Shown: in pieces, positions 54,029 to 55,059 of the stretch
Layout of the letters: each line of letters starts with the position of its first letter
Position numbering within the stretch: position 1 is the first letter of the stretch
From: a virus
UHGV virus genome: UHGV-0275551
DNA length: 64,000 nucleotides
Direction: 5' to 3' (one strand)
Notes under the pieces: model-generated
Told to the model about the DNA's origin: nothing
Database searches by the model: none
The model's input: only the letters and a program-made list of their open reading frames with translations
Made by a program: the position numbers and the translations under genes

Positions 54029-54616
54029 ATGAAACTGTTAAATATCAAAATCACTGGTACTCGTCCTTTCCTGAGCCACGCTGATACGCTGTCAGACCCA
54101 TTAAATCCTCTGACAAAATATCACAAGTCTCTGTCCAGTAAACGTAAAAAGACTGACGAAGACTATGCGCTCTTAGCAGAAAGCCAACTGGTAACTTCTT
54201 GTTACTACGATGAGCAGTTAGGTTTTGTTATGAACGGTGAGATGATTGAGGCTTGTATCAAGTCTGGTGCAAAACTCAACAAACTTGGTAAGGTAATTGA
54301 CCGAGCCATTATGCTGACAGATGTAGTCTTCCCAATGACTATCAAGAACTGTCCAGCAAACCCACAAGAACTTGCTAAGAATCCAGACTTTATCTATGCT
54401 AAGTCTGTTAAGATTGGTACAGCACGAGTTATGAGCTACCGTCCAATCTTCCGTGACTGGTCTGTAGAGTTCGGTTTGATGTTCGATGAAGAGCAAATCA
54501 CCAAAGAAGAACTCTTGATGGTTCTGGAAAATGCTGGTAACCTTTGTGGTGTAGGTGATTGGCGTCCACGCTTTGGTCGTTTTTCTGTAGAAGTTATTTC
54601 AGAAGGTAACGTTTAA
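54029..54616 (+). CDS. hypothetical protein
   Basis: Track start GTG 54014; ATG 54029 with SD GGAG. Confidence 0.55.
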
Positions 54617-54618
54617 TT

Positions 54619-55059
54619 ATGAATACAAAAGCATTAGCAGCAAAGTTTAGTTACGGTGACACTGTATCACACTCTGAGATGGATACCTTCTTAGGTATTG
54701 TGAAGCCAACTTATCAAGGTGACATTGTTAAGTACGAAGATGAAATGAAGGCTTATGCACTTACACGTCTAAACCGACTTGAGAAGTTTATTGAGAAGCT
54801 TCTTAAAGAAGAGAAGATTTATCTGGTTGCTTCAATGGGTGTTGGTTATCGTGTGGTTGAACCTAAGCATCAAGCAACTATTGCAAAACGCAAAATGTCT
54901 GGTAAGATTGGTCGAGCTTTAAAGCAAGCCACTCAAGCAATTGAGAATGTGAATACTATGGCACTTAGCCACCAAGAACGTTCACGACTAATTGAACAGC
55001 AAAACCATTTAGCTGCTATGAAAGCTAACATTAACAAGCAACGCAGAAAACCTTTCTAA
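54619..55059 (+). CDS. hypothetical protein
   Basis: 146-aa ORF. Confidence 0.55.
   Translation: MNTKALAAKFSYGDTVSHSEMDTFLGIVKPTYQGDIVKYEDEMKAYALTRLNRLEKFIEKLLKEEKIYLVASMGVGYRVVEPKHQATIAKRKMSGKIGRALKQATQAIENVNTMALSHQERSRLIEQQNHLAAMKANINKQRRKPF

Follow-up and report, generated by a model that had tools for sequence, protein, structure and literature searches.

VIPR (Viral Interference Programmable Repeat) systems have been reported as a new form of RNA-guided DNA recognition with a gapped code, and their authors propose them as an ancestor of the RAMP proteins of clustered regularly interspaced short palindromic repeats (CRISPR) systems (10.64898/2026.04.26.720920, 10.64898/2026.04.26.720927). 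A VIPR locus combines a small RAMP-like protein, Vipr, with an accessory gene, vap, and with vrRNAs of ~100 nt, each built of 9-16 GGY/NN pentamers and a structured tail (10.64898/2026.04.26.720920). In phage SUSP1, the vrRNAs are expressed during infection, as detected by small-RNA sequencing of their transcripts, co-purify with Vipr and direct binding to double-stranded DNA, where the NN dinucleotides are matched and one base is skipped per repeat; in natural VIPR targets, these skipped bases fall on codon wobble positions (10.64898/2026.04.26.720920). The SUSP1 system was found to repress green fluorescent protein, to block phage lambda via cro and to induce a lambda prophage via cI, with its protection strengthened by vap1; VIPR can be programmed to any DNA, and prophages are targeted by other clades (10.64898/2026.04.26.720920). 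Cryo-electron microscopy shows one Vipr protomer per repeat, with GGY sequestered, NN presented and an R-loop triplex formed on DNA (10.64898/2026.04.26.720927). Here, we describe two genes and their flanking repeats in the UHGV virus genome UHGV-0275551, at positions 54,029 to 55,059 of a 64,000-nt stretch (hereafter the window, meaning the whole of the DNA analyzed). We conclude with high confidence that this locus is a type II VIPR of the SUSP1 clade, carried by a Felix O1-like phage. Belonging to that clade and type, it is therefore not new, and the system is already known from the two studies above (10.64898/2026.04.26.720920, 10.64898/2026.04.26.720927).

The locus resembles the type II VIPR of SUSP1 in nearly every module. 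Both place the gene pair between the DNA ligase gene and the genes for dihydrofolate reductase (DHFR) and thymidylate synthase, and they share the promoter, both types of leader hairpin, all three types of tail, the GGYNN code and the class of target, an Escherichia coli satellite. The differences lie in the layout, with two vrRNAs on each side of the genes here (2+2) instead of the 1+3 arrangement of SUSP1, in the guides, all four of which differ, and in the phage genus, which is Felixounavirus here and Suspvirus for SUSP1.

The identity of the locus rests firstly on its proteins. An initial annotation made from the letters alone had called both genes unknown, but both can be named: they encode Vipr and Vap1, whose identities to the experimentally characterized SUSP1 proteins are 98.5% and 99%. 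The 195-aa product matches PDB chain 36pp_D ('SUSP1 Vipr protein') with a phmmer E-value of 8.5e-129 (195/195 residues aligned, 3 substitutions), the 98.5% identity being that to the SUSP1 record by tblastn, and the 146-aa product is identical at 145 of 146 positions to SUSP1 Vap1 (YP_009199428.1), which is encoded by the gene following vipr. Of the 14 residues that contact RNA or DNA according to the cryo-electron microscopy preprint, 13 are found in this Vipr (H17, K33, R39, E71, M72, K82, G87, K88, R138, C173, D177, W178 and R179); the remaining one, T175 in the preprint, is a V in this phage and also in the aligned PDB chain. When examined for RAMP architecture, the protein displays an RRM core, a thumb and a C-terminal G-loop in addition to the GGY-reading and DNA-holding residues, and its predicted model matches proteins of the Cas7 family. 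Vipr is thus a minimal, Cas7-like RAMP with an RNA-binding fold. A reading of the protein as a TRAP-like RNA-binding attenuator, recognizing triplets spaced by 5 nt, was dropped on the PDB match.

In Vap1, an N-terminal domain resembling a winged helix is accompanied by a long helical hairpin. Its homologs were reached only within the Felix clade by a word-indexed search, and an exhaustive search was required for distant relatives, of which it recovered 234 (~30% identity, 140-200 aa). The initial annotation was right that neither protein carries a recognizable motif, as profile searches of Pfam, NCBIfam and PADLOC returned no match for either of them and the PHROGs matches were limited to the unknown-function families 4652 and 5926. 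The vipr gene extends from its ATG at 54029 to its stop at 54616 (+ strand, 195 aa). An alternative GTG start at 54014 would give 200 aa, and we set the start at 54029 because the solved SUSP1 protein begins with MKLLNIK, matching that position. Directly 3' of it lies vap1 (54619-55059, + strand, 146 aa), the vipr stop and the vap1 start overlapping (TAATTATG).

The second line of evidence comes from the repeats. Both genes were found at the positions first described and bracketed, as had been noted, by structured repeats, which comprise two composites upstream (53646-53800 and 53799-53955, vrRNA-A and vrRNA-B) and two downstream (55087-55220 and 55218-55357, vrRNA-C and vrRNA-D), all on the + strand. 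Searching the window for (GGTNN)5 with at most 2 mismatches gave 33 matches, every one of them on the + strand and within these four blocks, where shuffled sequences lead to an expectation of 0.02. Each composite is formed by a leader hairpin, a run of pentamers (G at position 2, pyrimidine at position 3) and a 37-nt tail, and the parsed vrRNAs measure ~92-117 nt, compared with ~100 nt for the SUSP1 transcripts. The leader hairpins presumably act as processing signals.

Upstream of the genes, vrRNA-A begins with a type 1 leader hairpin (CATCACTTAAGAG...TTAAGTGATG; 53646-53686, fold -20.2 kcal/mol, z -6.5), the same module that precedes SUSP1 vrRNA1, followed by a guide of 16 pentamers (53684-53763; NN: CC AG AA CG TA AT TC AC AG AA AC AC AA AA AG AT) and a 3' tail (53764-53800) with hairpin GTAG/CTAC and pseudoknot AGTCTCA/TGAGACT. 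The leader of vrRNA-B has the type 1 stem with a longer loop (53799-53861, fold -18.0 kcal/mol, z -4.6), its guide has 11-12 pentamers (53859-53918; NN: (TT) AA AA GC CC CG AA GC GA AT AA AT), and its tail (53919-53955; hairpin GTGG/CCAC, pseudoknot GGTAG/CTACC) is identical to that of SUSP1 vrRNA1. Downstream, vrRNA-C has a type 2 leader hairpin (CCTCATTAAAAGGTCTT...AAGGTCTTTTAATGAGG; 55087-55125, fold -17.8 kcal/mol, z -6.8), a guide of 10-12 pentamers (55124-55183; NN: (AG AC) AT GG AG GA CT TT AA AG CT AT) and a tail (55184-55220) identical to tail A. Finally, vrRNA-D combines a type 2 leader (55218-55259, fold -14.1 kcal/mol, z -3.3) with a guide of 13 pentamers (55256-55320; NN: AG AG TC TG AC GA GT TG CT AA TT TT AT) and a tail (55321-55357; hairpin AAGG/CCTT, pseudoknot GGCAG/CTGCC) that also ends the SUSP1 array and the arrays of two Salmonella phages, Si3 and BPS17W1, which lack both genes.

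The tails covary as folded RNA. Among 11 distinct tails taken from the window and seven relatives, 94.5% of the cells of the hairpin and pseudoknot are paired and 9 of the 10 pairs have changed on both sides, and when the partners were shifted by 1-3 columns as a control, pairing fell to 32-41%. The pseudoknot of phage DaR-2019a, for example, reads AATCGGA/TCCGATT in place of the AGTCTCA/TGAGACT of tails A and C. An Rfam search over the region gave no match at E <= 1. When the window was compared with eight relatives, the loci were found to have leaders and tails in common and to keep GGY, with NN strings that differ; some guides recur among the relatives or vary at few NN positions. Guide C recurs unchanged in KhF3 and in O157 typing phage 12, the latter of which also carries guide D, and guides A and B are allelic to those of phage allfine with few NN differences, B being nearly identical.

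A promoter for the genes had also been predicted, and a near-consensus site does exist, although not directly in front of them. The putative sigma-70-type promoter TTGACA-16-TATACT (53589-53616, + strand, 11/12 in a consensus scan) precedes the first repeat composite and lies 413 nt 5' of the vipr ATG; in the interval from the upstream repeats to vipr, the sole candidate is a weak one (9/12, 53984-54013). The identical promoter sequence precedes vrRNA1 in SUSP1 and, in Si3 and BPS17W1, which lack vipr, the orphan vrRNAs. Most likely, it drives the vrRNAs and the genes together. Given that the flanking repeats are guide RNAs used by Vipr, repeats and genes belong to one functional unit, composed of the promoter, the four vrRNAs and the two genes.

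The guides provide the third line of evidence, as their variable positions decode to a satellite of E. coli. To locate islands, SUSP1 gp17 and the genes following it were used as blastn queries on 5426 complete E. coli genomes, and a chromosomal 'phage baseplate protein' gene at ~74-85% identity was present in 474 of them. The island measures ~10-12 kb and carries a tape-measure gene, a Felix-like baseplate gene, a large serine recombinase gene and a set of small genes; its insertion site varies (yciI/tonB, a DUF72 gene, or beside dinB or wrbA). An IMG/VR search with the satellite tape-measure protein found 4 loci only, mostly incomplete upstream. We scanned both strands of 13 satellite loci (599 kb, labeled with L-numbers) for the NN strings of each guide spaced by 0, 1, 2 or 3 wildcard bases, with significance assessed from 5000 permuted guides each and an NN match of at least 80% set as the threshold for a natural target. 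Guides A, C and D are addressed to this island, and the one-base skip alone gives a signal: guide A reaches 29/32 compared with 20-22 for skips of 0, 2 and 3, guide C 21/24 compared with 16-17, and guide D 21/26 compared with 17-18.

The match of guide A (91%, with 0/5000 permuted guides as high) lies on a 185-aa gene that opens the main operon of the island (L004 9688-9734); it is in frame, every skipped base sits at a wobble position, and the target region is present in 250 genomes. Guide C (88%, 1/5000 as high) falls on a non-coding satellite site (L004 8605-8639) and matches the homologous site of four other islands at 75-79%; in three of these (L006, L007 and L015), the homologous site is ~150-190 nt upstream of a Dam-HTH gene. 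Guide D (81%, 18/5000 as high) finds its match in the large serine recombinase gene, on the antisense strand (L009 6382-6419 and L015 13043-13080); the initial eight NN all match, the skips sit at wobble positions, and the target region occurs in 277 of the 5426 E. coli genomes. The targets of A and D occur together in the type of strain L6-21. Across the window and the eight relatives, 23 of 31 guides match the 13 islands at 80% or above.

Two of the 13 islands have a vrRNA of their own without vipr (L007 5059-5123, - strand, 13 pentamers; L012 4921-4970, - strand, 10 pentamers). Their tails are B-like with a compensated pseudoknot (GTCGA/TCGAC), and their guides match the window at background level only (17/26 and 14/20). 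In six other islands, a homologous site is matched by the L012 guide at 16/20, which fits the remark in the preprint that satellites target each other.

By extension from SUSP1, the locus would work as follows. A single transcript from the promoter at 53589-53616 would run through vrRNA-A, vrRNA-B, vipr, vap1, vrRNA-C and vrRNA-D as one operon, and would be processed into four vrRNAs of ~92-117 nt with 10-16 GGYNN pentamers and the 37-nt hairpin-pseudoknot tail. Vipr would polymerize on each vrRNA at one protomer per pentamer, burying GGY and displaying NN, and the resulting filament would bind double-stranded DNA by reading NNxNNx..., with one target base skipped per repeat, so as to form an R-loop triplex and block transcription; Vap1, as a small winged-helix-like protein, would boost this effect. 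The predicted targets are the first operon gene of the island (guide A), the non-coding region upstream of the Dam-HTH gene (guide C) and the integrase gene (guide D). Because three guides are addressed to a satellite island with a Felix-like baseplate gene, its most likely role is to guard the phage against a parasite that would hijack its virion parts.

Several points weigh against this interpretation. The identity and fold of the proteins, the repeat anatomy, the tail covariation and the skip-rule matches between guides and targets were observed in this phage, whereas its expression, processing, ribonucleoprotein assembly and silencing are carried over by analogy from the 98-99% identical SUSP1 system, in which ribonucleoprotein formation, double-stranded DNA binding, silencing and the Vap1 effect were established by small-RNA sequencing, pull-down, binding assays, fluorescent-reporter repression, plaque assays and cryo-electron microscopy (10.64898/2026.04.26.720920, 10.64898/2026.04.26.720927), both sources being preprints of 2026. 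The scan covered 13 satellite loci out of several hundred, and we infer the status of the island as a satellite of Felix-like phages, as does the preprint, from the tail and baseplate genes that they have in common. Guide D matches at only 81%, and none of the sampled satellites matches the three NN nearest its 3' end; guide B has no credible target in the 13 loci, where its best score of 18/22 was equaled by 142 of 5000 permuted guides. A scan of the locus for intrinsic terminators passed none.

Guide B also bears on the question of whether this VIPR locus could have another natural job, such as regulating genes of the phage or of its host or acting against other phages, with the satellite matches being incidental. 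We consider this very unlikely for the locus, with guide B a possible exception. In its favor, guide B lacks a satellite target and has a perfect 22/22 match in unrelated metagenomic phages, and both the targeting of any DNA and the targeting of prophages by other clades are documented in the preprint. On the other hand, no site within the window reaches 80% NN (the best self-matches are at 64-73%), and three of the four guides, along with the 23 of 31 from the window and relatives, converge on one island family. The exact match of guide B is moreover a single homologous site, found in the metagenomic phage contigs L013, L014, L019, L020, L028 and L029, which have a GC content of 0.38 and resemble neither this phage nor the satellites at the nucleotide level; its skip base falls on codon position 1, out of phase, and the count is near chance for one homologous site. 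Being out of codon phase and in unrelated contigs, it was rejected as a target and is probably due to chance. An exact scan of GTDB genomes for the 22-base pattern gave no match. As a separate observation, a 30-nt stretch in a 362-aa gene of unknown function is identical across contigs that are otherwise ~67% identical (L013 5431-5468, L014 7832-7869, L028 6622-6656 and L029 3467-3501); this conserved stretch is the only exact guide B match, probably by coincidence.

Presence of the system varies among related phages. Using tblastn, we found Vipr at 90% identity or more in 118 Ounavirinae records, and the region from the ligase gene to the downstream genes in 260, so that vipr is carried by at most 118 of ~260 related records and is variable and non-core. 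The two genes are not core replication genes conserved in all relatives: both are missing at the site in Si3 and BPS17W1, and tblastn over the whole BPS17W1 genome recovered neither vipr nor vap1 (best E ~1). In the corresponding gap, the two phages keep the promoter, followed by an upstream-type leader, one or two arrays and the last downstream-type tail. This arrangement looks like a deletion, being the expected product of recombination between similar vrRNA modules. Among the matching records, GU169904.1 ('Staphylococcus phage SA1') encodes a 100% identical Vipr and MG065664.1 ('Campylobacter phage A132') has the region at 94% nucleotide identity; these host labels clash with the Felix O1-like sequence, suggesting mislabeled or contaminated deposits.

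This variability was what the initial annotation anticipated in proposing a moron or exchangeable accessory cassette, in which the flanking repeats would serve mainly as recombination borders for gain, loss or swap. The presence/absence polymorphism, the consensus promoter and the boundaries of the gap in Si3 and BPS17W1, at an upstream-type leader and the last downstream-type tail, all favor such a cassette, and that part of the proposal stands, as the genes are indeed an accessory module that varies, most likely one deployed when mobile elements compete. The role given to the repeats does not. They are informative, with a strand-specific GGYNN periodicity, NN that vary between close relatives and skip-rule matches to satellites, and their SUSP1 counterparts are transcribed and purify together with Vipr. 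Furthermore, the promoter lies outside the upstream repeats, no terminator closing the unit was found in the scan, and the unit exceeds the two genes in that it includes the vrRNAs. The repeats can act as deletion endpoints, but loss through them is a side effect of their similarity, and their main function is guide coding; we therefore regard a cassette bordered by recombination repeats as hardly credible. We give practically no credence to a third explanation, with the arrays as DNA-level origin iterons or partition sites and the two proteins as their binders, an idea prompted by the location and one GenBank note on StbAB, since the arrays are single-sense and each end in a covarying RNA hairpin-pseudoknot, Vipr has an RNA-binding RAMP fold solved in complex with vrRNA, the variable positions decode to satellite genes, and the cumulative GC skew turns near 47-48 kb with the coding-strand switch and not at the locus.

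The GenBank note in question, in the KhF3 record (KT184315.1), reads 'direct repeat sequence4 possible binding site of StbAB' (L001 3126-3136) and is placed just 3' of the ligase gene and 5' of the vrRNA region; a partition function has no support in this analysis.

To return to VIPR, the vrRNA genes kept by the vipr-less phages (BPS17W1, L022 1338-1757; Si3, L021 1341-1622, equivalent to window positions 53583-55446) are intact, with their GGY periodicity and tails preserved, and one BPS17W1 orphan guide matches a satellite at 91% NN. Of the ~140 related records in which Vipr has no match, many possibly carry orphan vrRNAs as well. Such guide-only loci might still be functional, either by using, in trans, the Vipr of a VIPR-positive phage that infects the same cell or by competing for it, an idea that we put forward tentatively and think more doubtful than probable. 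If true, guides and effector would be separable, shareable goods in mixed infections. The searchable part of the preprint text contains no mention of helper phages without vipr, and the orphan vrRNAs of vipr-less relatives are a small addition to the known system.

The surroundings of the locus agree with its assignment to a Felix O1-like phage. A search of phage records with the 2.1-kb region gave 231 matches at 80-97% nucleotide identity, nearly all of them to Felix O1-like myoviruses (Ounavirinae) of Escherichia, Salmonella and Shigella. The gene order is DNA polymerase, HNH endonuclease, small open reading frames (ORFs), DNA ligase, the locus, small ORFs, DHFR and thymidylate synthase, which bears out the setting in a replication and nucleotide block that was first described, and the order around the locus is identical in the annotated relatives. 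After the vap1 stop, a GC-rich hairpin without a U-tract (55067-55089, + strand, RNA fold -13.6 kcal/mol, z -3.0) is kept in SUSP1 and fails the terminator scan.

Some neighboring features were observed in addition. Between the ligase gene and the VIPR promoter, there is a strongly hydrophobic 48-aa ORF (53436-53582, + strand; PHROG 22006, unknown function), and the SUSP1 sequence differs at this position. On the other side, a 19-nt inverted repeat of 89% complementarity (AAATAAGCTATAAAATCTG / CAGGTGTTATAGCTTATTT; 55355-55401), a candidate operator, embraces the next gene's promoter (TTGACA, 17 nt, TATTTT; 55374-55402, + strand). The gene behind this promoter (55447-55830, 127 aa) has a signal-peptide-like N-terminus and is retained in the vipr-less relatives. 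Homing-endonuclease ORFs adjoin or interrupt genes of replication and nucleotide metabolism, namely an HNH-type ORF after the DNA polymerase gene (50478-51029) and a PHROG 655 ORF beside nrdD (31916-32524), and in relatives, the polymerase, ligase and nrdD genes are split at corresponding places.

Beyond SUSP1, the nearest comparison is with the Cas7 effector backbones of class 1 CRISPR-Cas systems (Csm3, Cmr4, Cas7d and Csf2), from which this locus differs in having no long repeat-spacer array. Repeat and tandem-repeat finders show only the 5-nt arrays and the leader and tail modules, with no CRISPR array of ~25-40-nt direct repeats and unique spacers. Neither a second RAMP-like ORF nor cas1, cas2 or further cas genes were recognized beside the locus from ORF translations and the annotation of relatives, the neighboring ORFs (ligase, small hypotheticals, a transcriptional regulator, DHFR and thymidylate synthase) not having been screened with cas hidden Markov models. 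In addition, VIPR is phage-encoded, its guide is read at 2 nt in 5 and its target at 2 in 3, and it is reported to silence, not to cleave. With the conflict systems of phages and satellites (for example PICI, P4 or PLE-type), the locus has in common that a helper directs a dedicated device against an integrated element with which it shares tail and baseplate genes, and that guide alleles vary among sister phages as satellite alleles do. It differs from them in that VIPR is an RNA-guided transcriptional silencer instead of a nuclease, a CRISPR-Cas system or a protein inhibitor, and in that the satellite status of its target is deduced.

The locus thus brings no new principle; it is an independent re-derivation of the system from raw sequence, with the same modules in a different layout and with different guides. 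For annotation, it means that PHROG 4652 and PHROG 5926 genes found with GGYNN arrays in Felix O1-like genomes should be labeled vipr, vap1 and vrRNA. As several such phages serve in E. coli and Salmonella typing and in biocontrol, the presence of VIPR and the guides that it carries may affect their performance on satellite-carrying strains.

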